From a virus (Duplodnaviria > Caudoviricetes), in IMG/VR virus record IMGVR_UViG_3300040816_000922, positions 1-53,578 of that record: a DNA stretch of 53,578 bases. One strand, 5' to 3'. Positions 249 through 53,578 of the stretch are shown piece by piece (positions within the stretch are counted from its first letter, which is position 1; every line of letters begins with the position of its first letter). The notes beneath the pieces are model-generated. The model was not told the origin of the DNA. It worked only from the letters and a program-made list of their open reading frames with translations, and ran no database searches. A program made the translations under genes and the position numbers.

Positions 249-436
249 TCGAAGCTGCTCCCGATGACGTTGACAAGTTGCGCGACGCCATCCGGGGCAG
301 CGCCTCTCTCGACGATCTGCAAAAGGCATTCGCCACCGCCTATCGCTATGCAGGGAATCGGAAGAAGGCTGAGCTCCAGGAGGAGTTTAAGAGCCTGTAC
401 GACACACGAAAGGCAGCCTTTGAAGAGGCAGCGTAA
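1..436 (+). CDS. erf: ERF-family ssDNA annealing protein, 3' part (gene starts at 53101; ~221 aa in total)
   Basis: C-terminal DKSINKALSAAYKY...FSIPLEG..D.D motif, in frame with the N-terminal part at 53101. Confidence 0.85.
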   Translation, partial: GRQGSFTQIIYTAKMVGRYRIVSVDDGSSHCVSVPAHSFDMSDKSINKALSAAYKYMCVQVFSIPLEGMEDQDADHIEPSPQLEAAPDDVDKLRDAIRGSASLDDLQKAFATAYRYAGNRKKAELQEEFKSLYDTRKAAFEEAA

Positions 437-1365
437 TGGTTGCTGTACAGCAGGGCTCCGAAGCGTGGCATCAGCTACGGGACGGGAAGGTTACCGGCTC
501 TAGGGTCGGCGCCATTCTCGGGCACAACCCGTACCAAAAGCCCGACGCCGTGATGCGCGAAATGGTTCGAGCACACTTCGGTGCAGAGCGGGAGTTTGTG
601 GGCAACGAAGCCACGGCGCACGGGCACATCAAAGAGCCTGAGGCTCGGTCCTTTTACGAGGTACTGACCGGCACCCAGGTCGATGAAACCGACATGATTC
701 AGCACCCCGAGCACGATTGGATCGGGGTGTCTCCTGACGGTCTGGTCGGCATCGACGGGGGATTAGAGATCAAGTGTCCGTATTGGGCTAAGCGCCCATA
801 CACCATGGCGCAGAAGCAGTATTACTACGATCAGGTGCAGCTGTTTATCTGGACCGCTGGCATCGAGTGGTGCGACTTCCTCTGCTACTTCTCGCCGGAC
901 AAGTACCACCTCGAGCGCGTCACCCTGAGCCAAGACTGGATCAAGGAAAGCCTCCCTGTCCTGGAAGCATTCATCCAGGAGTACCAGGCGGTGATCAAGT
1001 CCAGGAAGCGCGCAGAAAAGTATCTCCGGGACGACACCAGCAACGCGGAGCAGGTGCAGGACAGCAGGCTCACGCGCCTGGCGGAGCTGATCCTCGAAGC
1101 GCAGGTGCTCGAAGAGAAGCTAGCCCCCATGACGAAAGAGATCCGCGAGCTCCGCTCGGCGGTCGGAAAAGATCACGGCACTTGCACCAACGGAGTGGTG
1201 CTTGTGAAGGCGGTCCAAAAGCAAGGCGCTGTTGATTGGCAGCGAGTTGCCGAAGCCGCAATGAGCGTCCCCGGTGCCAGGGATGTTGTCGGGGACCTCA
1301 ATAACTGGCGGAAGGAAGGCACTACCGCATACAGCACTGCCCTACTCAAAGGAGATGTCGAATGA
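436..1365 (+). CDS. YqaJ/lambda-exonuclease-family recombination nuclease
   Basis: QGSEAWHQLR, VTGSR, SPDGLV..LEIKCP and YYDQVQ motifs; lies between erf and ssb. Confidence 0.92.
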   Translation: MVAVQQGSEAWHQLRDGKVTGSRVGAILGHNPYQKPDAVMREMVRAHFGAEREFVGNEATAHGHIKEPEARSFYEVLTGTQVDETDMIQHPEHDWIGVSPDGLVGIDGGLEIKCPYWAKRPYTMAQKQYYYDQVQLFIWTAGIEWCDFLCYFSPDKYHLERVTLSQDWIKESLPVLEAFIQEYQAVIKSRKRAEKYLRDDTSNAEQVQDSRLTRLAELILEAQVLEEKLAPMTKEIRELRSAVGKDHGTCTNGVVLVKAVQKQGAVDWQRVAEAAMSVPGARDVVGDLNNWRKEGTTAYSTALLKGDVE

Positions 1366-2402: not shown

Positions 2403-2563
2403 GACGGAATCCCTTATGCCAAAACGGTATCAAAACGTTCTGGCTGCACGAATCAGTTTCGTTTAGGTTTAATACATTGCAGAACAGAAGTGGCGTGAAG
2501 CGAATGGATCAACTAGCCTTATCAGCGCATGGCGTTAAGTCCTCTCGAGGAGAGGATAAAACT

Positions 2564-3394
2564 ATGCAGAAAACGTTGGGAAGGGCTGTTGATCGTTGGC
2601 TGAAGATCAGGGAGCGCAAGTGTAAGAACCCGAAGTGGGTTGGCTATGACCGAACCTACACCGCGTTCTTCCTTGAGAAGCTGGGGGCAGACACCCTCCT
2701 CTCTGACATTCGGCGGTCAGACATAGCGGAGATCCGGGATGAAATGCTCGAGGAGCGTTGCCCGGCAACAGTGAACCGCTACATGACCACGCTGCGCTCG
2801 ATCCTAAATATGGCTCGAGATGATTGGGAATGGATTGATCGCGTTCCCAAGATCGAACGGCTGGAGGAGAAGGCAAGGCAGAACTTCATTACCAGGGAGC
2901 AGGCTCGAACTCTGATCGAGCTCTTGCCCGAGCACCTGGCAGCGATGGTTCGCTTTGTTCTCGCCACCGGCTTACGCAGCGCTAACGTTCGCAACCTCCG
3001 CTGGGATCAGGTGGACATCCGGCAGAAGTATCTGGAGATCCCTGGGGAGGAAATGAAAAACGGGAGAGTGTTCTCGGCACCGTTGAACTCGACGGCTATC
3101 GAGGTGCTCCTCGGACAGTACGGGAAACATCAGGAGTACGTTTTCCCGTACAAGGGAAAGCCGGTATCTCAATGCAACACGAGGGCTTTCCGAGAAGCTT
3201 GCCGTAGGGCGGGGATTCCTGGAACCAGGTTCCATGACCTTCGGCATAGCTGGGCTAGTTGGCACATTCAAGCCGGAACCCATACCGCCAAACTCAGAGA
3301 GCTCGGCGGTTGGAGCGACGACAAGATGGTGCAACGCTATGCCCACCTGAACCGACGCCATCTAGAAGAAGATGTGGAGGTCACAGCTTTTTGA
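2564..3394 (+). CDS. int: Tyrosine recombinase / phage integrase
   Basis: Catalytic R (TGLR), K (MKN), HDLRH, GGW, RYAH; GAGGA RBS before ATG 2564; attP immediately downstream. Confidence 0.95.
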   Translation: MQKTLGRAVDRWLKIRERKCKNPKWVGYDRTYTAFFLEKLGADTLLSDIRRSDIAEIRDEMLEERCPATVNRYMTTLRSILNMARDDWEWIDRVPKIERLEEKARQNFITREQARTLIELLPEHLAAMVRFVLATGLRSANVRNLRWDQVDIRQKYLEIPGEEMKNGRVFSAPLNSTAIEVLLGQYGKHQEYVFPYKGKPVSQCNTRAFREACRRAGIPGTRFHDLRHSWASWHIQAGTHTAKLRELGGWSDDKMVQRYAHLNRRHLEEDVEVTAF

Positions 3395-3474
3395 TCTAAA
3401 TGTTTCAGAGACTACAACCTACCATTTGGTTTGGACCCCGAAGGGGTAGGTAAGTCGCTGAATCTATTTAGATT

Positions 3475-5118: not shown

Positions 5119-5164
5119 GGACCCCCGGGGGACCCCTCCCTCTCCCGCCCCTGGGGGTCCGCTT
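5119..5164. terminator. Hairpin between convergent operons
   Basis: GGACCCCCGGGGG (5119-5131) pairs with CCCCTGGGGGTCC (5148-5160). Confidence 0.55.
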
Positions 5165-8100
5165 TAATCTTCAGCGGTTTCCTTGGTGAAGCGAGCGTTG
5201 AAGCGGCGATACACCTTGTACTCCCGCTCAACCATCTGCTCCTCGTATTCCTCGAAGCGCTCCTCGCTCATGTACTTCTCGGCGCTGCGCTTAGCTTTCC
5301 GGATCGAGCGAAGCTGCTTCTCCGCAGATTTCAAAGCCCCGGCAAGGCGAAGAACGCTGGCGTTCTCTCTTGAGAACTCGAGCCGCTCTTTCCCTCTGAG
5401 GGAATCCTTCTGATCTACGACCCGCAGAATCTCGTTGCGGTTGGTGTAGAAGGAATCCAGGTGCTCGTACTTTGAGGGCTGACCGTAGACTGCTCTCAGC
5501 AAGGGATACTGCCGAGCCTCAAGCTTCTCAACATCGCCAGTAAATGCGGCGCCGCCGAAGTTGATGAGGCGCATCCCAAACCGTCCGGCGCCCCCAGCAT
5601 AGAAGCCAACAATGTGATCGATGGCGTCCGGCGCAATATCAACCATGCCGGGGATATGTTTCTCCCCGCCGCTGATCTCGTTTAAGAACTGAGCAATCGC
5701 AATCGATGCTTCGCTGGTGTTCGGTCGGTGCAGCAAACTGTTCGGCAAATGCTCCTGATTCGGATACCGCCGGGGCAGGATGCTTGAGCCCCAGTGGTTC
5801 TCGTTGATCGCAAGCTGAACCCAGGGCTGAGCAATAGTAGGAGATGCGGACTTGATCGCCGTTCGAGTGATCCCGTTGGGTGACGCGGATACAGACAGTG
5901 GCGAGAAGCTGCCTAGGAACGCTCCGAAAACATTATTCACCGCATCGAGAGGCGTCTTGCGCGGGCTGAATGCCGCGTCCGTCAGCTCCGTCCCAATGAC
6001 ATGGAGCACAGAAAAGCCGTAAGGGAGGGGGATCTTAAAATAATCCTCCCCGTCCAGCGGATTCATGAAGATCATGTTCCGATCTTTCTCGTGCTGAGGA
6101 ATCATGTCGTAGTGGAGATTCCCCTCATCGTCCTCTCCGCTGATCATGCGATTCATCACAGCTAGACCGACCGACACGCCTACGCTCGCCATTGCAAGGC
6201 GCTGCGCAGCCGTCATGGTGCCTTGCTTAGTCTTTCCGGTAAGGCTTCGGATGACGTTCATGTTCCCCTGCACGGCGGCGTTGAAGAACATATAGAACGA
6301 ATTGATCCAGGCGGTAGATTCACCTCGACGGTTAAAGTTGACCGTTAGGTTCTTCGCCAAGTCTGCTGCACGCTCGGCGGACACTCCCTGTTGCCGGGCG
6401 GCGACATAGGCTGATAGCCGGGCAGCGTTCTCGAAAGCGCCGTTAAAGTCCTGGATAAAGTCCATGACCTTTCTGGCGCCGCGCTTGGCGTCAATCATGC
6501 TCGACTTGCCGTTAATCCTAGTAAGCGAGTCGATGCGGCTTGCTTCCTTCTCGAGATCCAGCAGGTTTGCCCAGCCGGTCATGCCGCCGAACTCCCTGAA
6601 CTCTTGGGCGTATCGATCAAACAGGACCTGCTCTGGGGTGCTGCCGCCCTTCCCTCGCGCGCTCCGCCAGAACGCTCGACCGCTAGCGATCCAGTTTTTC
6701 GGGATCTGACCGGCAATCTTTTTGCCCTCAACCCTGCCATCCGAGCGAGTCTGCTCCGCAAGGGCGTTGTACATAGCGGTGAACAGGTCGCGAGGAGCGT
6801 TCACAAGGAAGAAGGCTGGGTTGTATGTCGTCGATAGCTGGGAAAGGGCGCGGGTAAATCCGCCCAGGTACTGCACAACCAGCTTGTTCGCTTCTTCGCT
6901 ATTCGTGGCACCAGCGTTTTGCATGGCGCGATTGACCAGCGGATCCTTGAGCTCGATGAAGTAGGTGCCGCCGTCAATCTTAGCCATCATGAAGCGCTTA
7001 TCGCCGTTATCTTGGCGACGAGCAGTCCGCATATTGATGCGCTGGCGGACGATGCCGCCTCCGGGACCAGGCATCTCCTCGAGGGGACCATTGCCTTCTG
7101 CGTATACCTTCCAGCTCGTGGAGTCCGGGTACTCGAGGGTGAGGTCTAGCATAGAGACCGCCACCTCGTTCTTGCGGATCCGCATCGCCTTTTCTTGAGC
7201 AAGGCGAAGGCTGTTCAAGACGGGGTTAGCAGCCTTGGTTCTCCGACCTAGCGCAGCCATCGTTTCGCTGCCGCCAATAGAGAAGCCTGCGCCGGTCCTG
7301 GCGCCGCCCACGACGGGGGTCTTCATCTCTTCGGCGAAGCCTTGGAGGGGGACGTAGAACTTGAAAGAAGATTCCCACTTAACCTGGGTTTCCTCGTCAA
7401 TCATCCCTGCCTCATTGAGCCGGTCGCGGGCGTCCTGAAGGATGCCGTACATAACCTGGCTAGCCCTGCGGAGCTCCTCCGTCTTGCCCTCCTGGTCGAA
7501 GCGCAGAAGGATCTGATCCGCCTCTTGGTTGGTCATGCCCGATCCGCCATCATCCATCGGCTCAGGGGGCTGGCTTCTTGGGTTCCTGCCTTCCGCCACG
7601 GCTTGCTCGTGGCGCGCAATCGCCTCCCGACGCTTTTCCGCAATGAACTGATTACGCTCAGGGGCGTGCATCGCGTACATATAGAGCCCGAGCTCCTCGA
7701 GGCTAAGCCCGGCGTCCTTGAGGATCGGGACAGCGCGCTCGAACATCTGCTCGATGCGTCGGAAGTCTTCCCCAACCTTCCCGTAGTACAGGGTTTCCTT
7801 TAGGGAAACATCGACAGCCTCGTCAAGCTGGTCTAAACCATTGACCTCTTTGACCTTCTCGAGCTGAAGGCGGACGCGGAGCATCTTGTCCTGGATCTTG
7901 CGAAGGAATGCCTCGGTCCTGGTTTCATCATCCAGGTTGTAGAGGTTCGACGGTTCGCGATCAGAAAGCATTCCGCCTTCTGCCCGGGCGCTCTCGTAGT
8001 TAAAGTTGAGCCCGCTTTGAACAGGGTCGGGAGCTTCGTTTAATTCTGAGCTCTCTCGTGGGATAGCCTGTCCCTGATCTCCGCCCAGCGCGGATTCGGC

Positions 8101-11100
8101 TTCCCGTCCCTGATAAAAGAGTTGATCTTGTCGATTAGGGCTTTGGTCGTTCCGCTGAGCGCCGCCGTCTTGATCTCGCCCGACGGAACCGGGTGCCCGA
8201 ACTTCGCTTCGTACAAAGCCATCGCCCGCTGGAGTGGATTCTCTGCGGCGATTCGAGTCCAGTTGAACGCCATTTCTTCCTCCGTTGAACCGCTGAGAAG
8301 CGGTCTCTGCCGCATCCTGGATGACGGCAAAGGTCTGCGGCATGTTGCGGCGCAGCGCCTCGCGGTCAGTGTAATAGAGAGCATAGGACTGAGCAAAAAG
8401 CTCCCGGGCAATAAGCACCTGATCCTCTTGCGAGATCTGCCCTCCGCCGTCCTTGAGCATCCCCTCAATCAGGTTAAGGGGGTAGGTGTAATACTCAGAG
8501 AGCTCGCCGCCCTGCCACTGCTCGGCAGCCTCATTGAACAAGGGCTTGCCATCGACAATGAGCTCCCCGTTCTGCTGCTGCGCCTGGAACCCAAAGGAGC
8601 TTTGGACCATGCGGGCGGCAAGTCCCCTGCCCTGCGCCATGTTGAAGTCAACGGCGTGACCCACCTCGTGGGCAAGGGTGGACCGGAGAACCCGCCGGAG
8701 GCTTTGCTTGTACTCGCTGCGATCCCCTGAGGTGTCGCTTGCCAGGTCGGCAAACAGCTGAGAGTTAATCCCGACAACGCCAGCCTGGTAGTCAAAATAG
8801 CCAACCGTGCCGTCCGTGGTGTCGAAGGAAACGATGCCGTTCTGAGCCAGGTTGCCGATCAGATCGGTCGTGATACCGATCTCGGATAGATCCTCCATTG
8901 CTGCCGCGAGCTCGTTGCGGGCAAAGGAAGGGATCTGGTTTCCGCGATAGCCATTGGAGACAACATCCTCCGCCTGGCTGTATACAACCGAATCAGGGGT
9001 TCCTACCGAGGCTGCTCGGATGAATCGGACCTTGGGGATAGAGGTAATTCGCCCGGCATATCGGAAGCTTCCGGGGCTCTGCTCGAAGTCGATGCGCTTG
9101 AAGAGCGACGGGCTATCCGGTCCTTCTTCAGGAACTCGATTGCCTCCCTCGGGAGCAGCATCGGCGGCTCGTCCGGGTGCTTCAGGTTCGCGTTGTGCGT
9201 TGCTACTGCCAGCATCCGGTAGAACATCCGGTCGGTTAGCTGGCTGCGCGAAGAGGTCTTGGGGTTGTCCTGCATTATTCAGCCTCTCGAAGTTTTCAAT
9301 CGCAGAATCAACGATCTGATCAGTTGACGGCGCCTCGAGCTCCTCTCCAAACAGGCTTCCCGACTGCGAGGATTGATTCGCGGTTTCAAGGAATCGTCCC
9401 ATATCGGAGAGCAAAGAGCTCATCTTTTTGGCGGACCGCTTGTTTGCATCCAGCTGCTTGGCGAGAGTCGCGCTTACGGGGTCAATATCCCCAAACATCC
9501 CGGTCTGTGCAGCCAGATCTTCGACCGACCTATTCTCTCGGCGAGATTGCTGCAAGAGCTCAACCGCTCCTACAACCTTGGACACCAGATCACTGCTTAG
9601 GGTAGACCCCTCGGCTTCGAGCGCCCGAGCCCGAGCGAATACCGGAGCCGCTGTCTGCAATGCGTTCAGGACATTTTTGACATCCGGGTTAGTGTCCTCG
9701 GTGGCGACCGTAACCAGGCGAGCGTCACCATACGCCCTGGCGAAAACTGCATTCCGGATTCGGTTGACTAGAGCAGGCGTTGGGCGCCCGTCGCTTTGCA
9801 GTAAGCCTGATGCTTGGGTGGTCCCGAGCTCTGCCGAAAACTTTGATAGGAACCTGGCGTTGGATGCCGTATCAATCTCGCCGTTTTCGCCTGGAGCAAA
9901 GGAGGTCATCATCTCGTCAGAGATCATGTTTGCGTCTGCGAGCGCCTGCTCCGAAGGGGACATAGCGGCAATGGCGGACACGTTGGCGTCGCGGGTAAAC
10001 GCCTTTCGAGCGTCTACGGATAGGTCTCGAGTCCGGCGGCGGACGAGTACCGGGTTCGGAACAGAGTTGATCTGCTCCTCCGAAACTCCGCGCTGCTTAG
10101 CCTGCTCTCGCACCCAGGCAGCATATTCCCCCGCCTTGCCCCGTTGATACGCGAGCTGGAGGGCAGCCGCTCGACCATTGCCGCTCTCAACCACAAGATC
10201 GGGACCAACAACCGGGGCGCCGTCCTCTGCCCGCCCGGTGTCTCCAAGCTGCTCTGGAACCAGGGTGTTAGCAATCTCCTGGATCTGGACAAGGCTTGCC
10301 TGACGCGAGCGGTCCCGAGGCTGTAGTTCTGCCGGGTAAGCAGGGTTCACGCTGCCGTCGAATCTATTACTTGAGATCAGCTGGCTTGCATCGACGACCG
10401 CCCACTCCGCCTCAAACTCTTGAGCCTTGGAAGTCCTCACCCGAGCAGGGAGCCCGGTAAGGATTGGCGCGCCAGCGGTAGAAGCAGGCGCCTGGCTTTC
10501 CGCACCAGTAAGCCTGATGCCCCCGGTAAAATCAGGATCGATCAGACCCTGGTCAGCCAGGTCCTTTAAGACAGCCTGAGTCGGGTTAAAGCCGGTCCGA
10601 AGCCCGTTCTGAACATCGCTAACGGTAGGGTTTTCCGTGCTCCTAATGATCTCGAGAGCTTGCTGCGCCTGGGAGGCTACCGGCGCCTGGGCAATCGGAG
10701 CGTCTTGGTCAGCCTGTTCGACGGTATCTCTTGCAGAAAGCTGGATAGATGGCTGAGCTGGCGGATCTGGCAGTCCTTTCGGAATAAGATCTTTTTGCCC
10801 GGGAGCTGCGATATTGAGCTCTTGCAGCTTGCGAAGGCGCCGAAGGTTCTCCTGCTGCCTGGGGGTTAGGCTCCCCTCGTTACGGTCAGGCGTTCCCTCA
10901 AGGGGCGCGGTGCCCTGAGTCTCCGGGGCTGTATCGCTAGGGGGATTTTGAGGCGGCGCGGTAAGCCTTCTTGCTCCTGCGGTTACCCCAAGCTGCGCGC
11001 CACCACCCACAATCGTCGCGATTGAGGTAATCAGCTGGCGCTCTGCTTGAATTTCCCCAGCCCTTCCGTAATCCCCTTCATCGATTGCTTGCTCGAGCTC

Positions 11101-11934
11101 AGGGTCTAAGCCATTGGAGTAGGCATTGAGCGATTGGAAGAAAGTGGCGAGCTGCTCGCCAGGGATCTCGGTAAGCGCAAAGTCCCTCAGGGTTTTGGTA
11201 ATCTCCTGGCGCCCTTCTCCGCCCTTCCCGCCTAACGCGCGAACCAGGACCATGTTAGGGAGAACCTCGGTAGCTGCCTCAATTACCGCGTCAACCCCGG
11301 CATAGTTTGCCGCCTGGCTATGGTCTAGCCCCTCTGCTCGAGCCGTTGCGTAGCTATCCCCCGCCACAAGCGCGGACGCGCCCGTGGTGGCAACGGTGGG
11401 GCTGCGGGTAGCAAGAGCTGCAACCATCGTCGGCAGGTTTTGGGCAAAGGACACTACCCCGGAACGCACCCCTTCCTGCATTACGGAAAGGTTTTCAGGT
11501 CGGACGCTTGCGACTTCCCGGTCTATTTCCTGTGCCCGGGCAATCTGAGACTGCGCATCTTCCCTAAGCTGAGCCCCTAGCGGCGTCCGACTAATGATTT
11601 CCCTAACAGCATCCTGCGCAAGGTTGTACGCAGCAGCAGGACCCATCGTGTATCTTCCGGGCAGGCTAAGGGGGTCAGGCTCAGGTGCTGTCCCGAGATC
11701 GCTAGCCAGCCCTGCCCCAATCCCCCTGTAACTTTTTTCGGTTGCAAGGGCTATTTCTGACCCTAGCCCAGAGGCAATCCCGGAAAAGAACCCCTCGCTC
11801 TCAGGACGAACGGGCTCCGAGCCCAGACCGGACTCAACCTCATTCATGATGTCTTCGAGAGAGCGAGGAGTTTTTTGCTCCGGCGCCTTCTCCACTTCAT
11901 CCATGATAGAGCCGAGGCTGGGTCTCGTTGCCAT
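5164..11934 (-). CDS. Large polyvalent internal-virion/ejection protein (FtsK-gamma-like wHTH, DdrB-like ParB, HExxH zincin, LPD38), ~2256 aa
   Basis: ParB motifs QPRDR..GAPVV..VESGNGR; LAHEVGH; C-terminal YDMIPQHEKDRN..YFKIPLPYG; last gene of the virion block; ATG 11934 follows the upstream stop. Confidence 0.88.
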   Translation of the reverse strand: MATRPSLGSIMDEVEKAPEQKTPRSLEDIMNEVESGLGSEPVRPESEGFFSGIASGLGSEIALATEKSYRGIGAGLASDLGTAPEPDPLSLPGRYTMGPAAAYNLAQDAVREIISRTPLGAQLREDAQSQIARAQEIDREVASVRPENLSVMQEGVRSGVVSFAQNLPTMVAALATRSPTVATTGASALVAGDSYATARAEGLDHSQAANYAGVDAVIEAATEVLPNMVLVRALGGKGGEGRQEITKTLRDFALTEIPGEQLATFFQSLNAYSNGLDPELEQAIDEGDYGRAGEIQAERQLITSIATIVGGGAQLGVTAGARRLTAPPQNPPSDTAPETQGTAPLEGTPDRNEGSLTPRQQENLRRLRKLQELNIAAPGQKDLIPKGLPDPPAQPSIQLSARDTVEQADQDAPIAQAPVASQAQQALEIIRSTENPTVSDVQNGLRTGFNPTQAVLKDLADQGLIDPDFTGGIRLTGAESQAPASTAGAPILTGLPARVRTSKAQEFEAEWAVVDASQLISSNRFDGSVNPAYPAELQPRDRSRQASLVQIQEIANTLVPEQLGDTGRAEDGAPVVGPDLVVESGNGRAAALQLAYQRGKAGEYAAWVREQAKQRGVSEEQINSVPNPVLVRRRTRDLSVDARKAFTRDANVSAIAAMSPSEQALADANMISDEMMTSFAPGENGEIDTASNARFLSKFSAELGTTQASGLLQSDGRPTPALVNRIRNAVFARAYGDARLVTVATEDTNPDVKNVLNALQTAAPVFARARALEAEGSTLSSDLVSKVVGAVELLQQSRRENRSVEDLAAQTGMFGDIDPVSATLAKQLDANKRSAKKMSSLLSDMGRFLETANQSSQSGSLFGEELEAPSTDQIVDSAIENFERLNNAGQPQDLFAQPANRPDVLPDAGSSNAQREPEAPGRAADAAPEGGNRVPEEGPDSPSLFKRIDFEQSPGSFRYAGRITSIPKVRFIRAASVGTPDSVVYSQAEDVVSNGYRGNQIPSFARNELAAAMEDLSEIGITTDLIGNLAQNGIVSFDTTDGTVGYFDYQAGVVGINSQLFADLASDTSGDRSEYKQSLRRVLRSTLAHEVGHAVDFNMAQGRGLAARMVQSSFGFQAQQQNGELIVDGKPLFNEAAEQWQGGELSEYYTYPLNLIEGMLKDGGGQISQEDQVLIARELFAQSYALYYTDREALRRNMPQTFAVIQDAAETASQRFNGGRNGVQLDSNRRRESTPAGDGFVRSEVRAPGSVGRDQDGGAQRNDQSPNRQDQLFYQGREAESALGGDQGQAIPRESSELNEAPDPVQSGLNFNYESARAEGGMLSDREPSNLYNLDDETRTEAFLRKIQDKMLRVRLQLEKVKEVNGLDQLDEAVDVSLKETLYYGKVGEDFRRIEQMFERAVPILKDAGLSLEELGLYMYAMHAPERNQFIAEKRREAIARHEQAVAEGRNPRSQPPEPMDDGGSGMTNQEADQILLRFDQEGKTEELRRASQVMYGILQDARDRLNEAGMIDEETQVKWESSFKFYVPLQGFAEEMKTPVVGGARTGAGFSIGGSETMAALGRRTKAANPVLNSLRLAQEKAMRIRKNEVAVSMLDLTLEYPDSTSWKVYAEGNGPLEEMPGPGGGIVRQRINMRTARRQDNGDKRFMMAKIDGGTYFIELKDPLVNRAMQNAGATNSEEANKLVVQYLGGFTRALSQLSTTYNPAFFLVNAPRDLFTAMYNALAEQTRSDGRVEGKKIAGQIPKNWIASGRAFWRSARGKGGSTPEQVLFDRYAQEFREFGGMTGWANLLDLEKEASRIDSLTRINGKSSMIDAKRGARKVMDFIQDFNGAFENAARLSAYVAARQQGVSAERAADLAKNLTVNFNRRGESTAWINSFYMFFNAAVQGNMNVIRSLTGKTKQGTMTAAQRLAMASVGVSVGLAVMNRMISGEDDEGNLHYDMIPQHEKDRNMIFMNPLDGEDYFKIPLPYGFSVLHVIGTELTDAAFSPRKTPLDAVNNVFGAFLGSFSPLSVSASPNGITRTAIKSASPTIAQPWVQLAINENHWGSSILPRRYPNQEHLPNSLLHRPNTSEASIAIAQFLNEISGGEKHIPGMVDIAPDAIDHIVGFYAGGAGRFGMRLINFGGAAFTGDVEKLEARQYPLLRAVYGQPSKYEHLDSFYTNRNEILRVVDQKDSLRGKERLEFSRENASVLRLAGALKSAEKQLRSIRKAKRSAEKYMSEERFEEYEEQMVEREYKVYRRFNARFTKETAED
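8040..8273 (-). CDS. Nested 77-aa gene in the +1 frame of the polyvalent protein, after the zincin domain (candidate immunity/inhibitor)
   Basis: GGAGG-AAGAA-ATG RBS; globular-looking product, while the host frame is a polar linker with several CGA codons. Confidence 0.7.
   Translation of the reverse strand: MAFNWTRIAAENPLQRAMALYEAKFGHPVPSGEIKTAALSGTTKALIDKINSFIRDGKPNPRWAEIRDRLSHERAQN
9003..9275 (-). CDS. Nested 90-aa gene in the +1 frame, after the ParB region (candidate partner/immunity)
   Basis: GAGAGG-7nt-ATG; helical-looking first ~55 aa; host-frame codons here mostly end in A/T. Confidence 0.55.
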   Translation of the reverse strand: MQDNPKTSSRSQLTDRMFYRMLAVATHNANLKHPDEPPMLLPREAIEFLKKDRIARRSSSASTSSRAPEASDMPGELPLSPRSDSSEQPR

Positions 11935-11935
11935 A

Positions 11936-13297
11936 TTACTGATCGCCCCCTGCGCCCAAGACTTCTTGATAACGACCGTAGATCTCTTGAATTTGCGCAG
12001 GGTTGTAATTGCGAATCCGTTCGAGCTGCGCGTCAATCTGTTGAGGCGACTTCGTAAGGTACTCGCGCTGCGCCTCTTGCATGAGGAAAAAGCGCATTTC
12101 ATTAATACCTAGGTCTCGCTCTGCCCCTGCTGCCGAAGGCGCCGTGTCTCTCGGGAGGAGATTGCTCGGGACCACGCGCGAATACTCTTTGTCGAGTGCG
12201 TCATCAACGAAGTAACTGATGGGAAGCTCGGGACCAAGAAGGTCCGGGTCTTCGATCCCGTTGCGTCGAGTCATATAGGCTTTGTATGCCTCCTCTCCGC
12301 GCCTTTCCGCAGCAGAAAATCTATCCGGATCTGCCTTTCGGACCTGGTCGAGGAGGGCTCTCTTCATGGAGGGGTCCTCCTTCACCGCCGCTTGCACCAT
12401 GCTCAACCCGATAACAGGATTGATAATGTCTTCGAGGCGAATGTCGGCAGCTGGAGCGTTAGGGTCAGTGCTGCGTCCTACGGTAATCGGCGCCTCATAG
12501 GACCCGCCTTCTGCATCCACCTTGAGGTTAAGGCGCAGAACTGGAGCTCCGTCCTCTTCCTGCCCCACAACCTCATAGCTCACAACGTCAGCGTTGGTGA
12601 TCACGCCGTTGCGCCCGACCGCCCCTTGGATAGCCTTTAGGTTTGCGTCCATTCCAAGGTTCAGGGCATCAAGAAGCTCAGAGCTGTTCGCCTGCAAGGG
12701 TTTTTCCCCGCGAACAAAGCCCATAGCATTTTCGATGCGCCCCGCCGCTGCTTGGCTAAGCATAGCGGTGGGATGCAGTGCAGACCCTTCGGTAAGCTTT
12801 AGCCCCTGAAGCACCGATTCCGTCACCCCCTGCCCACTTGGATCCAGCATGGGAAGCCACTGAGTGAATCCTCTTCGTGCCGCATCAAGGCGTGCAGCAG
12901 TCTGGCTTTGCTCAAGGTCAAACTCGGTTTTGCTAGTGCTTGCTGCGGAAGAAGCCTCCTGCGCGCGGCTTGCCGCGATTCGCGCGGCTGACTCATCTCC
13001 AGCTCGAGCATCTTGCCTGAACGCGAGCGTGTTCTCGTAACCAGCTTGGCGCATATCGAATAAGGCTTTATCCCGAGCAGCGAGTGCGGCTTGCTCTGCG
13101 GCGGTGGCTTCTCGATCCGCCTGCTCGCGCATGTACTTCCGATACTCCTCATCCGCGCTAGCTTCTTGAACGGCTAGCTCGTAACGCTGCTTGAGATTTT
13201 CCGCATTTGCAGCGTCAGCCGCCTGGCGACGCTTGCGCTCTTCCATGTCGTTGACTAAGCCGTAGCCTGAGGTAAATCCTGCTGCAAAGCCGCCCAT
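11936..13297 (-). CDS. Internal virion/ejection protein (453 aa)
   Basis: MGGFAAGFTSGYGL N-terminus, coiled coil, position in ejectosome cluster. Confidence 0.75.
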   Translation of the reverse strand: MGGFAAGFTSGYGLVNDMEERKRRQAADAANAENLKQRYELAVQEASADEEYRKYMREQADREATAAEQAALAARDKALFDMRQAGYENTLAFRQDARAGDESAARIAASRAQEASSAASTSKTEFDLEQSQTAARLDAARRGFTQWLPMLDPSGQGVTESVLQGLKLTEGSALHPTAMLSQAAAGRIENAMGFVRGEKPLQANSSELLDALNLGMDANLKAIQGAVGRNGVITNADVVSYEVVGQEEDGAPVLRLNLKVDAEGGSYEAPITVGRSTDPNAPAADIRLEDIINPVIGLSMVQAAVKEDPSMKRALLDQVRKADPDRFSAAERRGEEAYKAYMTRRNGIEDPDLLGPELPISYFVDDALDKEYSRVVPSNLLPRDTAPSAAGAERDLGINEMRFFLMQEAQREYLTKSPQQIDAQLERIRNYNPAQIQEIYGRYQEVLGAGGDQ

Positions 13298-15710: not shown

Positions 15711-16113
15711 CGGGGATCTCGATCACCCCGGCATGCTCGAGGTAGAGGGGGTGGTTGGCGATAAAGTTGAAGGCGCCAGGTCCATCGAACTCAATGGAGA
15801 GGTGCCCGTCAGCCAGCTCTACCGTCGAATTGTCGAACTCGAACCAGACCTGTGTGTTCTCGGGGAAGGTCAGCTCTACCTCCCACCCTCCGAAAACCTC
15901 TTGAGGATCACTGACTGTGACCGGGAGAGCGGGACGCGGGACTAGGGTTAAGGTCTCAAGATCGACCTTGAGCATGGTTAGGTCTTCCCCAGGCAGAACC
16001 TCGATCCGACCGATCCCGGCAATCTCCGGCAGAGGTGTGCCAATGGCGACGGTAGTCGTGCCAAGAATCGCGCCATCCGCAGTCCGGTATTTGACGTATG
16101 TCACCGTGCTCAT
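15703..16113 (-). CDS. Tail fibre/tip accessory protein
   Basis: ATGA-coupled to the tail tip gene; beta-rich. Confidence 0.6.
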   Translation of the reverse strand: MSTVTYVKYRTADGAILGTTTVAIGTPLPEIAGIGRIEVLPGEDLTMLKVDLETLTLVPRPALPVTVSDPQEVFGGWEVELTFPENTQVWFEFDNSTVELADGHLSIEFDGPGAFNFIANHPLYLEHAGVIEIPDA

Positions 16114-19100
16114 CGCTGGACTCCCATTGCGATAATTGATGCGTCATAGAGATAGACCTGAAACGCCTTCACCTCCATCGAGAAGGTGTAGGTCCCTGCG
16201 GCGAGATCCCGCTGGATCGTGCCGCTGTGGACTGCGCCGGTATTGAAGCTGGGGATGTACTCAATCTGTGTACTGCCCTGAAGCAGACGGACGTTGTAGT
16301 TGGTCGCGCCGCTGCCCTGAGCGTTCGTACGCGTAAACCACATGAGGATGATCCTGCCAGGGACATCCAGAGTGACGGTTACCTGAGGAAGACCGTTAGT
16401 GGGACCAACCCACCCAGTGTAATAGTTGTTGACGTATATCGAAGAGATGCTCAGGTCATCGTAGGCAGGGACAATGACCGCGTTGCCCTTGATCTGGAGC
16501 GTGTCAACGTAGGCATCGCCAGTGAAGATCTTGTTGCCGTCAATTAGCGTAGAAGTCGGACGGGTCCAAGTGTTCACCCTGCTGCTGGCATATGCTCCGG
16601 CGGATGCCTGATCTCTTACAGAGCTGGCAATACTTCCCGCTACCCGGGCTGTGTCGTAGGAAGTATGGGAAGCCGTTACGTCAGCATACTCGTCCGGCTT
16701 GTAGTTCCCAGAAACTTGGGTCCGGTAGTCGGCAGAATTTGAGGTAGCCAGAGCCCCTTGGTTGGCGATATTTGCAGCTGTGTTTTCGGAGGTTTTATCC
16801 GCGAAATCACCTGGCTTCCCATAACCCGAAACTTGATTCTGCCACGCCACTGACGATTGAGTTGCTAGGGAGCCTTGCCCTGAGATGGCGGCGGCTGTGT
16901 TTTCAGACGTTTTATCAGCGCCGTTGGCGACGTTTAGGTCGGCTCGCGCATTCGCTGCATCGGTCGAGGTCAGGAATCTCACCGCGCCCCGGAAGATCCC
17001 GCCGTTAAACTCGACGCTGCCGTTGCGTAGAATCCTCCAGCCACTTGTCCCGGACGAGAAGTTAGAGGACTGAATCTTGTCCCCAATCGAAAGATCGAAG
17101 ATATTCGCAATCCCGATCCTGGCGGCAGCGAGGGTTCCGTATGCTGCTGTTAGGTTGTCAAGGAAGCCATCTTTGATCTTCGCGACCTCAATAGTCGCGT
17201 CTTGGATTGCCGCTGTTTTTATATAGGTCTTGCCCCCGGTCACGATGAAGGGAACAAGGTCGTCCGTATTGGTGGGCAGGCTAGAATCATAGATGGCAAA
17301 CCGATCTGCCTGGATATAAAGGCGAGTCGATGTCCCGTCGTTGAGGATCCCGATGCCGCCGACCAGTTCGCCCACCTGAGTCTTAGTCGTCCAGCGCGCT
17401 CCCGCTCCATCCCAGGATCGCGCCTGAGTCTGAACGTAAGCGGCGTCTCCGCCTAGAGTCGAATAAACCTGCTGGGTAGCCGTGGCAATCGCTGCGCTCT
17501 TCGCCGTAGCGATAGCCTCGTCCATTTGCGTGACGCCAGCTTTACCGTTTATCACCCCGTCCTGAGTGGAAAACCTGGCGTTGATGTTTGAGAACTGGCT
17601 GACCTGCGAGGCGTAGATCGTAGACTTCGCGGTATTTAACTGCTCTATCGTGGCTCGTGCGTTTATCTGCTCTTGCTGGCTGTTGAACGCTGCATTGATG
17701 TTTGTGTACTCAGTCACAGCAGCTTGCTTAGCAGTGGCTATGGCATCCGTCAGCTGCTGAGATGTCGCTCTATTGCCAATGGCTGTATTCGCGCTCTCAA
17801 TCGCGTCATCCACCTCGCCAAACTTTGCGGCGATGGTCGTAAACTGTGTGACATTTGACGCATAGATATTCGCAACCGCGTTTGTTAAGTCCAGAGAGGT
17901 CGCTTTGTTCTGGAGGGCTGAGTTGACAGTCCCGAACTGTGCATTGATGTTCGTGAATTGGCTAACTGCCGAAGAGTAAATGTTGGTCTTCGCGTCATTG
18001 AGCTGCTGAATGGTTGCGCGATTCCCGACGGCGGTGTCAACGGAGTCAAACTTGGCGTCGATCTCTGTGAAGGCGCTCACCTGTGCGCCGTAAATGGTTG
18101 AGACTGCCTGGGTCAGGCTCGCCGCAGATGCTTTGGACGTAAGCCCCGTAGTGGTGTTGTTTACCGTAGATGACAGCTGCGTAAGGCTTTGCGAAAGAGC
18201 GCTTATGCCATCTTCTGTGTCATCAACCCTTGAGGTAACGTCTGAAAGATCGGAAGCAACTCCTGCGATTGCGCCGCCAAGGGAATCGTATTCACCAATC
18301 TTTTCCCAATAGCTTGTGTTGGTCGGGACGACGCTCGAGGTCGCCTGGATGCACTTGTAGATTGCGCCGTTATATTTCACCAGATCGTCGATAGCGTACG
18401 ACGTTCCGGACGCCCAGGTAGGTAAGCCCTCAAGATCAGCTATGGAAGCCTGGAGAGAGGTGATTGCGCTTTGACGCGCCGCCGTCTCCGTCGCGATCCG
18501 GGAATTTACCGAACCCACCACCGTAGCGTCGGCGTCGATAAGATCAATTCTGCTTGCGAGGTCTGAGAAGAGTTGGTCCTCTCGAATCTCATTGGTAAGG
18601 GCTGTGAGAACCTTTGTGACGTTGATCGCTGTCTGAAGCTCAAGACCTGAGGTGCTGTGAAACTGCCCCGCTACCCCGGCAGTGGAGACAAAGCGGATCC
18701 AGAAATACTTAGTCGTGTCGATGTCCATATCGACAAGGAAGACGGACAGAGCCCCGAAAGCGGATCCGTATTTCGTTGCCGCAGAGATGTCGTCAGAGTC
18801 GTGCCAGTACACCTCGGTGTATGCGTGGTTCGAGTAGGTGGGCTCATCCCAAGAAAGAACTGCGTACTCGAAGCCCGCTCGCCCGGTGAAGCCTGTGGGG
18901 ATAGGCGGCACATCAAAATTGTTGTCCCCTTCAGCAGGGACCCCGCCGATCCCCCTGAAACCCTCGCGAAGATCCTTGAGGAAGTCGTCCCCCAGAGCGT
19001 CTCGGAAGGTGACAGCACGATCAAGCTCGTTGCCTCTCTGCCCCTGGAGCACGCCGACAGCTTCCCGGGTCTTCTCGGCAAACTGCACGATCTCCTTCGT

Positions 19101-19148
19101 TGCGCGAAGGACCGGCGGGATGACAGGCTTCTTGGGAGCGTTAGCCAT
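16110..19148 (-). CDS. Tail tip/host-specificity fibre protein (DUF1983-like) with CBM5/12-type module and helical repeats
   Basis: GELVGGIGI..IQADRFAI..PFIV.GG.TYIK.A.IQDATI motif; TWASGTSYAIDDLVKYNG.IYKC...W. Confidence 0.82.
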   Translation of the reverse strand: MANAPKKPVIPPVLRATKEIVQFAEKTREAVGVLQGQRGNELDRAVTFRDALGDDFLKDLREGFRGIGGVPAEGDNNFDVPPIPTGFTGRAGFEYAVLSWDEPTYSNHAYTEVYWHDSDDISAATKYGSAFGALSVFLVDMDIDTTKYFWIRFVSTAGVAGQFHSTSGLELQTAINVTKVLTALTNEIREDQLFSDLASRIDLIDADATVVGSVNSRIATETAARQSAITSLQASIADLEGLPTWASGTSYAIDDLVKYNGAIYKCIQATSSVVPTNTSYWEKIGEYDSLGGAIAGVASDLSDVTSRVDDTEDGISALSQSLTQLSSTVNNTTTGLTSKASAASLTQAVSTIYGAQVSAFTEIDAKFDSVDTAVGNRATIQQLNDAKTNIYSSAVSQFTNINAQFGTVNSALQNKATSLDLTNAVANIYASNVTQFTTIAAKFGEVDDAIESANTAIGNRATSQQLTDAIATAKQAAVTEYTNINAAFNSQQEQINARATIEQLNTAKSTIYASQVSQFSNINARFSTQDGVINGKAGVTQMDEAIATAKSAAIATATQQVYSTLGGDAAYVQTQARSWDGAGARWTTKTQVGELVGGIGILNDGTSTRLYIQADRFAIYDSSLPTNTDDLVPFIVTGGKTYIKTAAIQDATIEVAKIKDGFLDNLTAAYGTLAAARIGIANIFDLSIGDKIQSSNFSSGTSGWRILRNGSVEFNGGIFRGAVRFLTSTDAANARADLNVANGADKTSENTAAAISGQGSLATQSSVAWQNQVSGYGKPGDFADKTSENTAANIANQGALATSNSADYRTQVSGNYKPDEYADVTASHTSYDTARVAGSIASSVRDQASAGAYASSRVNTWTRPTSTLIDGNKIFTGDAYVDTLQIKGNAVIVPAYDDLSISSIYVNNYYTGWVGPTNGLPQVTVTLDVPGRIILMWFTRTNAQGSGATNYNVRLLQGSTQIEYIPSFNTGAVHSGTIQRDLAAGTYTFSMEVKAFQVYLYDASIIAMGVQR

Positions 19149-23117: not shown

Positions 23118-23477
23118 TTATGCTCCTTGTTCCATGCCGGGGGGTAGTTCAGCGGGCGCCCAGGGAAGCTGGTCGTCTATGCTGTCTCTTGCGTCCATCT
23201 GCTCTTGAATTTTTCTTTGGATAAAGTGGTCAACATCAAGCGCCCGGGTGCCTGTTACGCGACCCTGAATCCAAGCCAAAACATCAGCCTCGGTTAGTGA
23301 TGCAAAATCAATATAGGAGTCGCTAGTCGGATCGCCGTCGTTCAGCTCGTCCACCATGCTAAACATCGCCGTTCGACCGCTTTCATCGGTTCCGGTTTTA
23401 CTCCAATACACTTCAGTCACCGTCCCAGAAGCATCTCGGCGAAGCCTCAAAATCTTCCACTCATAGGTAATAGCCAT
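23118..23477 (-). CDS. Tail fibre assembly/associated protein
   Basis: MAITYEWKI..YIDFASLTEADVLAW..LPW motif typical downstream of fibres. Confidence 0.7.
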   Translation of the reverse strand: MAITYEWKILRLRRDASGTVTEVYWSKTGTDESGRTAMFSMVDELNDGDPTSDSYIDFASLTEADVLAWIQGRVTGTRALDVDHFIQRKIQEQMDARDSIDDQLPWAPAELPPGMEQGA

Positions 23478-53100: not shown

Positions 53101-53578
53101 ATGGAACCGCAGACCCAGGCACTTGGTGTATACCAGGGCATTCACAAGGCAGCAGAGATCCTTGCAAAGAAGGGAATAGGTAAAAACCAGCGCAACCAAG
53201 CGCAGAATTTTTCCTATCGAGGTATCGATGACATCCTAAATGCCGTGTCCTCGGCGCTTGTCGAAGCACGGCTTGTCATCCTCCCTGAAATCGAAGACGC
53301 AGAAATTGTCACCCTGCAAAACGAAAAGCAGGGGCGGCAAGGGTCCTTCACGCAAATTATCTATACGGCAAAGATGGTCGGTCGCTACCGGATTGTTTCG
53401 GTAGACGATGGGTCCAGCCATTGCGTGTCGGTCCCGGCGCATAGCTTCGACATGAGCGACAAGAGCATCAACAAAGCCTTGTCCGCTGCCTATAAATATA
53501 TGTGCGTTCAGGTGTTCAGCATTCCCCTCGAAGGGATGGAAGACCAGGACGCAGACCACATCGAGCCCTCCCCCCAGC
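53101..53578 (+). CDS. erf: ERF-family annealase, 5' part (continues at 1-436; absent from the ORF track)
   Basis: GGAG RBS; MEPQ..VYQGI..GIGKNQRNQAQNFSYRGIDDILNAV, the typical ERF N-terminus. Confidence 0.85.
   Translation, partial: MEPQTQALGVYQGIHKAAEILAKKGIGKNQRNQAQNFSYRGIDDILNAVSSALVEARLVILPEIEDAEIVTLQNEKQGRQGSFTQIIYTAKMVGRYRIVSVDDGSSHCVSVPAHSFDMSDKSINKALSAAYKYMCVQVFSIPLEGMEDQDADHIEPSPQ
53331..53578. repeat. Direct terminal repeat copy 2
   Basis: Identical to 1-248. Confidence 0.97.

Follow-up and report, generated by a model that had tools for sequence, protein, structure and literature searches.

The Rz1 gene of phage lambda is read in the +1 frame relative to Rz. In the literature on this pair, the o-spanin gene is described as lying wholly within the i-spanin gene in another reading frame, and the two products form a complex (PMC5295617, PMC6139136). 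Polymorphic toxin systems offer a second comparison, and PMC3482391 sets out their toxin-then-immunity gene order and its recombination logic. A third comes from the polyvalent proteins of phages, whose zincin-like metallopeptidases (MPTases) are proposed by Iyer et al. 2017 (PMC5512222) to autoprocess the polyprotein or to attack host proteins. Nested genes and peptidase-inhibitor pairs are each of a kind that is already known.

The locus described here lies in a viral DNA of 53,578 nucleotides (IMG/VR record IMGVR_UViG_3300040816_000922), the whole of which is referred to below as the window. It consists of a small open reading frame (ORF) nested within the gene for a large polyvalent protein (the "host" ORF), and its features are as follows, with evidence in brackets.

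5164-12102, minus strand: host ORF, a 2312-residue large polyvalent protein (Pfam LPD38 and ddrB-ParB, PHROG matches)
10030-10425, minus strand: ddrB-like ParB domain, host residues 560-691 (Pfam PF18763, E 4.2e-36, above cut-off)
8274-9102, minus strand: zincin-like metallopeptidase domain, host residues 1001-1276 (HExxH and ELFAQ read directly)
8274-8283, minus strand: Shine-Dalgarno-like GGAGG (8279-8283) and 5-base spacer AAGAA (read from the sequence)
8040-8273, minus strand: nested 77-codon gene, ATG 8271-8273, TAA 8040-8042, in the +1 frame of the host ORF
8040-8274, minus strand: host-frame linker, residues 1277-1354, of low complexity, fast evolving and stop-free, overprinted on the nested gene
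5500-6114, minus strand: LPD38 domain, host residues 1997-2201 (Pfam PF18857, E 2.1e-40, above cut-off)

The host protein is matched by PHROG families 14770, 616 and 5143 and, like the polyvalent proteins of Iyer et al., combines ddrB-ParB and LPD38 domains above the Pfam cut-offs with an HExxH domain. The motifs of the latter are where the first-pass annotation had placed them, with HEVGH at 8656-8670 (residues 1145-1149, including H1145 and H1149) and then ELFAQ (residues 1234-1238; codon of E1234 at 8401-8403). Leads from the Atlas point to Peptidase_M90 and ATLF clusters, and a Pfam ATLF match over residues 1233-1263 (E 0.0017) stays below threshold at 18.6 bits, the cut-off being 27.4. 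The zincin fold was not confirmed by a single-sequence AF2 model (pLDDT 36) or by Pfam, where matches fall below the cut-offs, and none of the Pfam polyvalent-MPTase models matches the domain. In PMC5512222 a nested gene for an MPTase partner is not described; "overlapping" and "linker" occur there 0 times, and the passage with "inhibitor" concerns inhibitory pyrophosphate.

Translation of the minus strand of 8040-8273 gives 77 residues and a TAA, identical to the sequence quoted in the first-pass annotation, whose account of position, start signal and boundaries also holds: the ORF begins where the zincin domain ends (8273/8274) and spans the linker, covering host residues 1277-1354. Its GGAGG and AAGAA spacer sit within host codons G1274-G1275-R1276-N1277, and host residues 1273-1278 around them are unchanged in all six relatives. 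GGAGG or GGAG stands at comparable spacing before several probable gene starts of the same phage; with GGAGG-N4-8-ATG occurring 22 times across the window, however, the ribosome-binding site carries no significance on its own. The stretch is contained in 19 runs, none of which is on record as RNA. As with Rz/Rz1, a small phage gene lies fully inside a larger gene of the same strand in another frame, here with predicted partner products; unlike Rz/Rz1, the container codes for a polyvalent protein of the virion, or an injected one, and not for a lysis protein, the nested protein carries no lipoprotein signal, and the nested frame is apparently the older of the two and under more constraint, with the host frame as filler. 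The locus also resembles the polymorphic toxin-immunity pairs, including those with zincin toxins (Tox-MPTase1-5), in having a small gene directly 3' of a peptidase coding region, a predicted binding and a cassette-like arrangement. It differs from them in that the small gene does not follow a stop codon and is instead overprinted by the continuing host ORF, and in that the large protein is a phage polyvalent protein and not a secreted RHS or T6SS toxin.

The nested protein belongs to a family of small proteins. A phmmer search of 1.84 billion representatives returned 14 matches at E<=1e-3, 8 of them small (71-134 residues) and aligned over almost their full length; one of these, P0011, is 96% identical and the other 7 are 30-47% identical (E 6.9e-12 to 8.4e-4). 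The 6 matches longer than 134 residues each align in several stretches, two of them (P0017 and P0019) being repeat proteins. With a profile, 25 proteins of 69-125 residues were found (E 3e-29 to 2e-14), so that the HMMER scan and profile search together yield about 25 small relatives at 34-47% identity to the nested protein, none of which has a Pfam domain or a name. Their N-termini fall within a few residues of the nested start, and they share the motif Y..FGH.VPS.E.K.AA..G...W; in an alignment of 29 sequences every member has Y21, P30, K35, A37 and W63, and conservation of F25, G26, H27 and G41 is 90% or higher. When viral, metagenome and genome contigs were scanned with the motif pattern, no true family member emerged.

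Substitutions in the overlap follow the nested frame. The relatives' DNA differs there from the window at 8 positions, 5 of them silent in the hidden frame and 1 silent in the host frame; when host amino-acid changes explicable by a single base change are added, 9 of the 12 variable sites are synonymous in the hidden frame, where 22.8% are expected (binomial p 1.8e-4), and 1 in the host frame. Host codon position 3 takes 30 of the 32 listed differences in the flanks versus 2 of the 8 in the overlap (Fisher p 1.8e-4). In a diverged relative the hidden protein, P0011, departs from the nested one at 3 of 77 residues, and the matching host protein, P0004, shows 10 differences in the 78 residues of the linker. 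These counts are small because host residues 1000-1360, in which the zincin domain and the nested gene form one highly conserved mosaic block with relatives diverging on both sides, are 91-98% identical in protein sequence among the close relatives, which are not independent lineages. Codon usage agrees in direction: the log-odds over the overlap is 0.34 for the hidden frame versus 0.015 for the host frame, and among all 78-codon windows of the 2312-codon host gene the host-frame score reaches its gene-wide minimum of -0.04 at ~8280 (mean 0.42, sd 0.18) and the +1-frame score its gene-wide maximum of 0.365 at ~8303. From these comparisons it appears that purifying selection in the overlap acts on the nested frame and that the host frame is constrained merely to stay open. 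Family, substitution pattern and codon usage strongly support the first-pass annotation's "hidden gene", and the nested ORF is very probably a genuine one.

What the nested protein does can be approached through structure prediction. The AF2 monomer model (29-row alignment) has five helices with pLDDT 70.9 and disordered tails (residues 1-7 and 71-77, pLDDT <50). Co-folding with zincin residues 1000-1276, which had been suggested from the outset, gave an ipSAE of 0.88 (runs of 0.90, 0.88 and 0.85) versus 0.00 for the best of 3 controls. In a calibration that holds only roughly, since the analyst's own alignments were used, 58 of 80 solved complexes attained that mark, as did 2 of 110 mismatched pairs. 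The three runs share at least 88% of contacts, and the nested partner has pLDDT of at least 89, its tails now being ordered at 90-92. The predicted interface comprises H1145, H1149, E1234, Y1207 and 1180-1183 of the zincin and residues 1-9, 30-41 and 69-77 of the nested protein, ~145 contacts that engage nearly every segment of its 77 residues. In this model the conserved core 30-41 (with invariant K35), the most conserved segment of the family, and a C-terminal HE motif would face both HEVGH histidines and E1234, and residues 3-6 pair with the zincin strand 1180-1183. On these predictions we think it probable that the nested protein binds the zincin domain. The serralysin inhibitors APRin and Inh are beta-barrel periplasmic proteins that put a terminal segment into the metallopeptidase cleft; the model, in which residues 3-6 add a strand next to the cleft and conserved residues lie close to the zinc ligands, may be comparable, although the nested protein is all-helical (AF2) and of about 77 residues. 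The first-pass annotation had read it as a cognate peptidase inhibitor or immunity protein; the gene itself stands, and the inhibitory role, for which the support is predictive, has prospects that we would put at about even or slightly below.

A function unrelated to the zincin (anti-defence, regulatory or in virion assembly), with the linker merely an available stretch that could be overprinted, seems rather unlikely. In its favour, the small family is wider than the detectable zincin clade, which fits poorly with a strictly cognate pair. Host residues 1080-1480 searched against proteins of 1271-4046 residues gave the 5 close relatives and 2 weak partial matches, host residues 1000-1276 gave no zincin homologue among proteins of 30-1270 residues, and tblastn of the zincin against phage records gave no distant one, the word-based searches being of limited sensitivity. 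Fold searches, too, came up empty: neither by sequence nor by fold does any solved structure match the nested protein, and Pfam, PDB and fold searches matched it to no known inhibitor family or fold and, in Pfam, to no described immunity family. The likeness to small proteins downstream of phage toxin domains that the first-pass annotation suggested was likewise not borne out in Pfam, PHROG, PADLOC or PDB, or by a significant fold match. Against an unrelated role stand the co-folding score and its controls, the position of the most conserved segment at the predicted interface, and the conserved mosaic block that the zincin domain and the nested gene share.

That the nested protein binds the zincin as a positive partner, i.e., as a missing subdomain, activator, substrate-selecting subunit or folding chaperone, is in our judgement unlikely. 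The co-fold score, a model confidence rather than a measurement, does not distinguish an inhibitor from a subunit with an activating or a structural role; for 77 residues the interface is very large and would equally suit an obligate subunit, as would tails that become ordered in the complex, and the conserved H72-E73 near the metal site could complete the site rather than block it. However, the predicted contacts cover both HEVGH histidines, E1234 and the strand beside the cleft, and occlusion is the simpler reading because they sit where substrate would lie. Moreover, among the phmmer matches there is no relative in which the small domain is fused in frame to a peptidase.

The host frame over the nested gene is R/Q/G/D-rich, as had been remarked from the sequence: residues R/Q/G/D/S/E/N/P/K make up 76% of the linker versus 56% of the whole host protein, and CGA codons number 4 in its 78 codons versus 25 in the other 2234. 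Its 78 residues show 11 amino-acid changes among 5 close relatives, so little constraint that, taken with the lowest codon score of the gene, the host ORF might be regarded as separate units (an N-terminal gene with the zincin at its end, then the small gene, then a C-terminal gene for LPD38) with the read-through unselected. In the contig of one run a base is missing at 8006, with the host frame then ending near 7835 in silico, and there is a record, from a 53,457-base contig, of a 906-residue protein that starts at host M1407. We hold such a division to be improbable. The missing base may reflect faulty assembly. The host frame runs open through the window, and 5 relatives of 2190-2272 residues have it intact. 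A stop-free host frame arises in just 0.55% of 100,000 synonymous recodings of the hidden frame (mean 4.5 stops), and none of the 23 hidden codons at risk of a host-frame stop follows a codon with T in third position. The one length difference just past the overlap in P0007 and P0008 is one whole codon, and PHROG families have the C-terminal module inside larger proteins (profile positions 2518-3423 of 3427). The host frame across the overlap thus seems to be kept open.

Openness of the nested frame is by itself only mildly unusual, in a test that carries ascertainment bias because the site was first noticed as lying inside a long ORF. Of 9625 windows in the phage's long ORFs, 645 (6.7%) have the +1 frame open over 79 codons, and for 143 codons, the stop-to-stop length of the nested frame, the figure is 24 of 7961, the nested site included. 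In this DNA of 58% G+C, with same-strand ORFs of 80-111 residues elsewhere in the host gene, the frame could be an untranslated chance opening and its "homologues" wrong-frame calls on fragments of related large genes; many of them come from contigs of 335-1900 bases, and P0011 was called on a contig with a fragmented large gene. This is very improbable and largely refuted, for the family shows protein-like conservation at 34-47% identity with common start and end points, some members lie on contigs of 10-149 kb, and the searches with the host residues turned up no large protein with a matching linker or zincin at that distance. The homologues, the substitutions that spare the hidden frame while striking the host frame, and the codon usage together place the nested ORF beyond chance. 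It is scarcely credible that the segment once was, or under some conditions is, an in-frame domain rather than an independent gene, whether reached through programmed frameshifting or put out of frame by two compensating indels: the hidden frame does stay open over the 65 codons that precede the ATG (142 codons if counted from an upstream TTG to the stop), a rare length, but the upstream translation is rich in Arg, Cys and Leu and not protein-like, the family members are free-standing in size and start at the same point, the ORF has its own GGAGG-N5-ATG and TAA, no long protein among the phmmer matches carries the domain in frame, and the arrangement is kept in 5 relatives.

The explanation that we favour, a genuine, separately initiated nested gene whose product is a probable zincin inhibitor, has in its entirety about an even chance of being right. 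The gene lies between the coding regions for the zincin domain and the C-terminal LPD38 module. Ribosomes initiating at the internal GGAGG-N5-ATG on the shared mRNA would make a 77-residue helical protein, while those in the host frame would traverse the same DNA to make a disordered linker whose sequence is nearly irrelevant. As to origin, we infer that a peptidase-then-immunity gene pair may have come first, and that the upstream ORF was then extended across the small gene in a different frame and so became fused to the downstream module. The small protein would clamp over the active-site cleft of the adjacent zincin domain. Most likely it would serve as a cognate inhibitor, either as a safety catch or for immunity, and may keep the peptidase from acting in the producing cell, or in a lysogen, before packaging or delivery of the polyvalent protein.

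The virus record from which the window is taken (IMG/VR; completeness rating 97%) carries on its minus strand a complete ORF, with its own start codon and ribosome-binding site, that lies inside another and much larger ORF. The features of the nested gene and of its host are these.

8040-8273, minus strand: nested gene in the +1 frame of the 2312-codon ORF at 5164-12102, by translation; ATG at 8271-8273, TAA at 8040-8042
Five bases upstream of this ATG, minus strand: Shine-Dalgarno-like GGAGG, by sequence
Host residues 560-691, minus strand: ddrB-ParB domain (PF18763; Pfam, E 4.2e-36, above the cut-off)
Host residues 1997-2201, minus strand: LPD38 domain (PF18857; Pfam, E 2.1e-40, above the cut-off)

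Judged by its sequence, the host ORF is a large polyvalent protein: it is giant and multidomain, combines LPD38 with ddrB-ParB, and is sited among virion and tail genes. The nested gene spans host residues 1277-1354, a linker that in the host reading consists to 76% of R, Q, G, D, S, E, N, P and K and in which 4 of 78 codons are CGA, compared with 25 of 2234 in the rest of the host ORF. Its ATG stands one codon past host residue 1276, the end of the zincin block, which is the immediate 3' position in which a cognate inhibitor would be sought. The first-pass annotation had described this arrangement accurately in every particular (GGAGG, 5-base spacer and ATG; the HEVGH and ELFAQ motifs; the linker composition and the CGA codons), and the 77 residues it quoted are the exact translation of 8040-8273 on the minus strand, followed by TAA. 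A scan of 7800-8700 found no promoter-like and no terminator-like sites, and an internal promoter for the nested gene is neither supported nor needed.

The openness of the nested frame is by itself weak evidence for a gene. Across the long ORFs of this phage, in DNA of about 58% G+C, 645 of 9625 intervals have a +1 frame free of stops for 79 codons and 24 of 7961 have one free of stops for 143 codons, and the combination of GGAGG, four to eight bases and ATG occurs 22 times in the window. Two antisense ORFs also lie opposite the host gene, at 8122-8730 (plus strand, 202 aa) and 9428-10147 (plus strand, 239 aa); such lengths look common in G+C-rich DNA. Four other lines, namely homologues, selection, codon usage and fold, are strong evidence that the nested ORF exceeds chance, and on their showing the nested gene is very probably real. 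With regard to codon usage, a log-odds model trained on the remaining long ORFs of the phage gives the host frame its whole-gene minimum (-0.04; mean 0.42, sd 0.18) at about 8280 and the +1 frame its whole-gene maximum (0.365) at about 8303, and inside the overlap the hidden frame scores 0.34 versus 0.015 for the host frame. With regard to fold, an AF2 model built on the family alignment predicts five helices with floppy tails (pLDDT 70.9). The stretch occurs in 19 sequencing runs, of which none is on record as RNA.

The homologues come from a full HMMER scan with the 77 residues against 1.84 billion representative proteins (E<=1e-3), which returned 14 matches, eight of them small proteins (71-134 aa) that align across almost their full length. 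One of the eight, P0011, is 96% identical to the hidden protein, and the other seven are 30-47% identical (E 6.9e-12 to 8.4e-4). The remaining six matches are long proteins with three to nine matching stretches each; P0017 and P0019, the two of these that were read, consist of repeats and carry a short motif that is similar. A homologue search had been put forward in the first-pass annotation as a check on its claim, and a family of about 25 small relatives was indeed recovered, the profile search yielding 25 proteins of 69-125 aa (E 3e-29 to 2e-14), none with a Pfam domain or a name in its source. In a 29-sequence alignment the residues Y21, P30, K35, A37 and W63 are invariant, F25, G26, H27 and G41 are at least 90% conserved, and the family members have start and end points in common. 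The tandem repeat of P0017 is built on the unit ..ALAIYE.AYGENHPS.., which we take to be TPR-like and which resembles the family's AMxLY..FGHPVPS; a TPR identity for the family was rejected, as no member has a Pfam TPR match and the motif is present in single copy.

Pfam assigns a family to none of the 29 members, and the hidden protein is without a match in PHROGs or PADLOC; the best match in a PDB profile search with its family has an E of 0.52, Foldseek with its model against the PDB and BFVD gives nothing at E<=0.001, and the best ESM Atlas score, 0.81, is at chance level. Neither by sequence nor by fold, therefore, does it match an inhibitor, immunity or defence family in Pfam, PHROGs, PADLOC or the PDB. 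A search of viral contigs for loci like those of the family proteins P0012 and P0014 gave pattern matches and no relative. A degenerate DNA pattern for Y-x3-FGH-x-[VI]P-x4-K-x-A, with the six-frame ORFs of its matches checked by hmmsearch, gave 0 stretches of viral contigs, 28 of metagenome contigs and 19 of genome contigs; hmmsearch recognized no true member among them, and apart from the window's own locus the matches extended over little of the profile beyond the motif itself. Against phage records, tblastn gave only matches at E of at least 2 with P0001 as query and none with the family protein P0032. In two of the runs, X18 and X19, short contigs (545 nt and 164 nt) align with the nested gene over its conserved core only (window 8158-8202, nine differences) and then become unlike the window. 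By hand translation in the hidden frame, the loose end beyond the match reads ..AMKAYKQ.., and it looks as though these samples contain a second and diverged member of the family. Three family proteins (P0034, P0035 and P0044) are called with 40-55 extra N-terminal residues that are unlike a protein, so that, as in the window, their frame apparently stays free of stops for some distance before the conserved start, a weak hint that these genes may also lie inside other coding sequence.

Selection was assessed in five proteins closely related to the host protein (2190-2272 aa) and in DNA from four public runs. The host-frame linkers of the five relatives differ at 11 positions, each explicable by one base change, and nine of the 11 differences are synonymous in the hidden frame, most of them where host codon position 1 coincides with hidden position 3. 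In the DNA of the four runs, eight differing overlap sites stand among the differences listed, five hidden-synonymous and one host-synonymous. When the two sets are pooled, 9 of 12 variable sites are hidden-synonymous, against 22.8% expected (p 1.8e-4), and 1 of 12 is host-synonymous. Host position 3 accounts for 30 of the 32 differences listed in the host-only flanks; in the overlap the figure is 2 of 8 (Fisher p 1.8e-4). A further 24 differences lie beyond those listed. X12 and X18 leave parts of the stretch uncovered, a gap to which no meaning is attached. The hidden protein of one diverged relative (P0011) departs from that of the window at 3 of 77 residues; in P0004, the matching host variant, 10 of the 78 residues in the linker differ. 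The nested frame is under purifying selection that can be told apart from the selection on the host frame in this small sample of close relatives (91-98% protein identity in the block of host residues 1000-1360), and the substitutions indicate that the hidden frame is under amino-acid constraint in the overlap. The claim of the first-pass annotation that a gene is hidden here is borne out by small homologues, by substitutions that are mostly synonymous in the hidden frame, and by codon usage that favors that frame.

The host frame seems to be kept as well. At 23 hidden codons a T at the end of the codon before would produce a stop in the host frame, and in no case is that T present; of 100000 synonymous recodings drawn by phage codon usage, 0.55% leave the host frame open, with a mean of 4.5 stops expected, in a test that is biased by the site having been noticed for lying in a long ORF. 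No stop interrupts the host frame in the window or in the five relatives. Both frames appear to be functional, with this ascertainment bias and a possible split variant as caveats, and we conclude from the sequences that the region is dual-coding, the host frame being constrained only to stay open, as a disordered linker. One contig from run X12 (depth 9) has lost a single base at 8006, a short way beyond the stop of the nested gene on its 3' side, and its host frame ends in silico near 7835; a 906-aa protein (P0055), on a record from a 53,457-base contig, starts at host M1407 (7884). The gap at 8006 and the 906-aa protein may represent a split form of the polyvalent gene, or assembly errors.

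The putative zincin domain that precedes the nested gene has its HExxH motif, HEVGH, at host residues 1145-1149 (8656-8670), with H1145, E1146, G1148 and H1149 invariant in six of six sequences and V1147 changed to M in P0004. ELFAQ follows at host residues 1234-1238, and its E1234, a candidate third metal ligand, falls within a sub-threshold ATLF match (E 0.0017; 18.6 bits versus a cut-off of 27.4). Atlas searches offered Peptidase_M90 and ATLF clusters as leads only, a single-sequence AF2 model of the domain was unusable (pLDDT 36), and a PDB sequence search with the domain gave no match. No relatives of the host region were found by blastn in phage records or in viral contigs, and no distant zincin homologues by tblastn against phage records or among shorter proteins. 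Among the relatives, host residues 1000-1360 (window 8023-9105) are 91-98% identical, and the sequence on either side only 55-84%, which points to the zincin and the linker with its small gene as a distinct mosaic unit, and to modular exchange of the block.

The zincin (host residues 1000-1276, 6-row alignment) and the hidden protein (29-row alignment) were co-folded, with ipSAE values of 0.90, 0.88 and 0.85 (median 0.88) and 0.00 for the best of three controls; the mark is reached by 58 of 80 solved complexes and 2 of 110 mismatched pairs, a calibration that holds only roughly here because our own alignments were used. Agreement between the three predictions covers at least 88% of their contacts, with a partner pLDDT of at least 89. 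The predicted interface involves H1145, H1149, E1234, Y1207 and strand 1180-1183 of the zincin and, on the partner, residues 1-9, the most conserved segment (30-41) and the C-terminal residues 69-77, with K35 placed against E1234 and Y1207, and E73 against 1230 and 1234. As a prediction, the co-fold supports binding over the catalytic cleft, and it seems reasonably likely that the hidden protein binds the adjacent zincin.

What such binding would accomplish is a further question, on which the first-pass annotation had proposed a cognate peptidase inhibitor or immunity protein. The co-folding check speaks for this proposal (0.88 versus 0.00, with an interface at the cleft), as a prediction. The likeness that it saw to small helical proteins encoded downstream of phage toxin or peptidase domains was not borne out in Pfam, PHROGs, PADLOC or the PDB. 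According to Iyer et al. 2017 (PMC5512222), no domain is commoner in polyvalent proteins than the zincin MPTase, which is proposed to autoprocess these proteins either ahead of packaging or once they are injected; a partner that keeps the cleft closed until its time comes, as the hidden protein might, is therefore a sensible mechanism. In the order of its parts, a peptidase domain and then the gene of a small predicted binder, the locus matches polymorphic toxin cassettes, for which toxin-then-immunity order is described in PMC3482391. The role of cognate inhibitor or immunity protein is the one we favor, at close to an even chance, because of the modelled cleft interface, the autoprocessing proposal, the toxin-then-immunity order and the mosaic block. 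An activating or structural subunit of the zincin is a live alternative reading of the same predicted contact, and a function unrelated to the zincin, against which the co-fold can be set, is live too.

An inhibitor or immunity protein could have come to lie where it does if the peptidase ORF had read through a former immunity gene and become fused to the downstream module. The fuller version of this history strikes us as rather unlikely: the zincin and the small gene would be a captured peptidase/immunity cassette, the immunity gene overprinted by read-through fusion to a virion-delivery module, such that the polyvalent "warhead" of the phage carries its own antidote gene in its linker. The phage also encodes an integrase (phrog_1), a RecE-like exonuclease, an internal virion protein (phrog_511) and two large tail-fibre proteins, PHROG annotation supplying phrog_1 and phrog_511. 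The five genes occupy these positions.

2504-3394, plus strand
436-1365, plus strand
19149-20774, minus strand
16110-19148, minus strand
23477-28324, minus strand

Given the integrase, the phage is probably temperate. The polyvalent gene stands at the end of the virion block, and the ends of the record (1-248 and 53331-53578) form a 248-base direct repeat with one mismatch, the first 120 bases exact, which suggests a terminal repeat or a circular overlap, though the record is classed as "linear". Under the captured-cassette history, the antidote would set the timing of the injected protein's self-processing, and because the phage also encodes an integrase it is conceivable that a lysogen might use it to neutralize the incoming peptidase of related superinfecting phages.

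The nearest known arrangement is the embedded Rz1-in-Rz spanin pair (PMC5295617, PMC6139136), and the nearest functional logic for a zincin with a nested gene is that of a toxin-immunity pair. No nested partner gene in a polyvalent protein was found in print, within a literature search of main texts; in the text of Iyer et al. 2017 (PMC5512222) the words "overlapping" and "linker" occur 0 times, the "inhibitor" passage concerns inhibitory pyrophosphate and not a peptidase inhibitor, and autoprocessing is proposed with its regulator not described. The nested gene and the toxin-immunity pair are known kinds, and the present case, as we read the sequences, would join them and rests on an unnamed protein family.

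To our knowledge, same-strand nested genes are not reported by gene callers, and this family of about 25 proteins, which is without a name, is in this phage invisible to annotation. The case is an unusually clean one, in that selection acts on the nested frame while the same DNA forms a free-form but open linker of a giant host protein, and it offers a concrete route for fusing two genes across a third. Hidden partner genes should, it is suggested, also be sought in the linkers of further giant proteins from phages and plasmids; if distant members of the family are also nested, they would constitute a recurrent and so far unannotated gene layer inside polyvalent proteins. For the polyvalent proteins themselves, the nested gene provides a testable answer to the question of how their zincin peptidases may be held in check until delivery.
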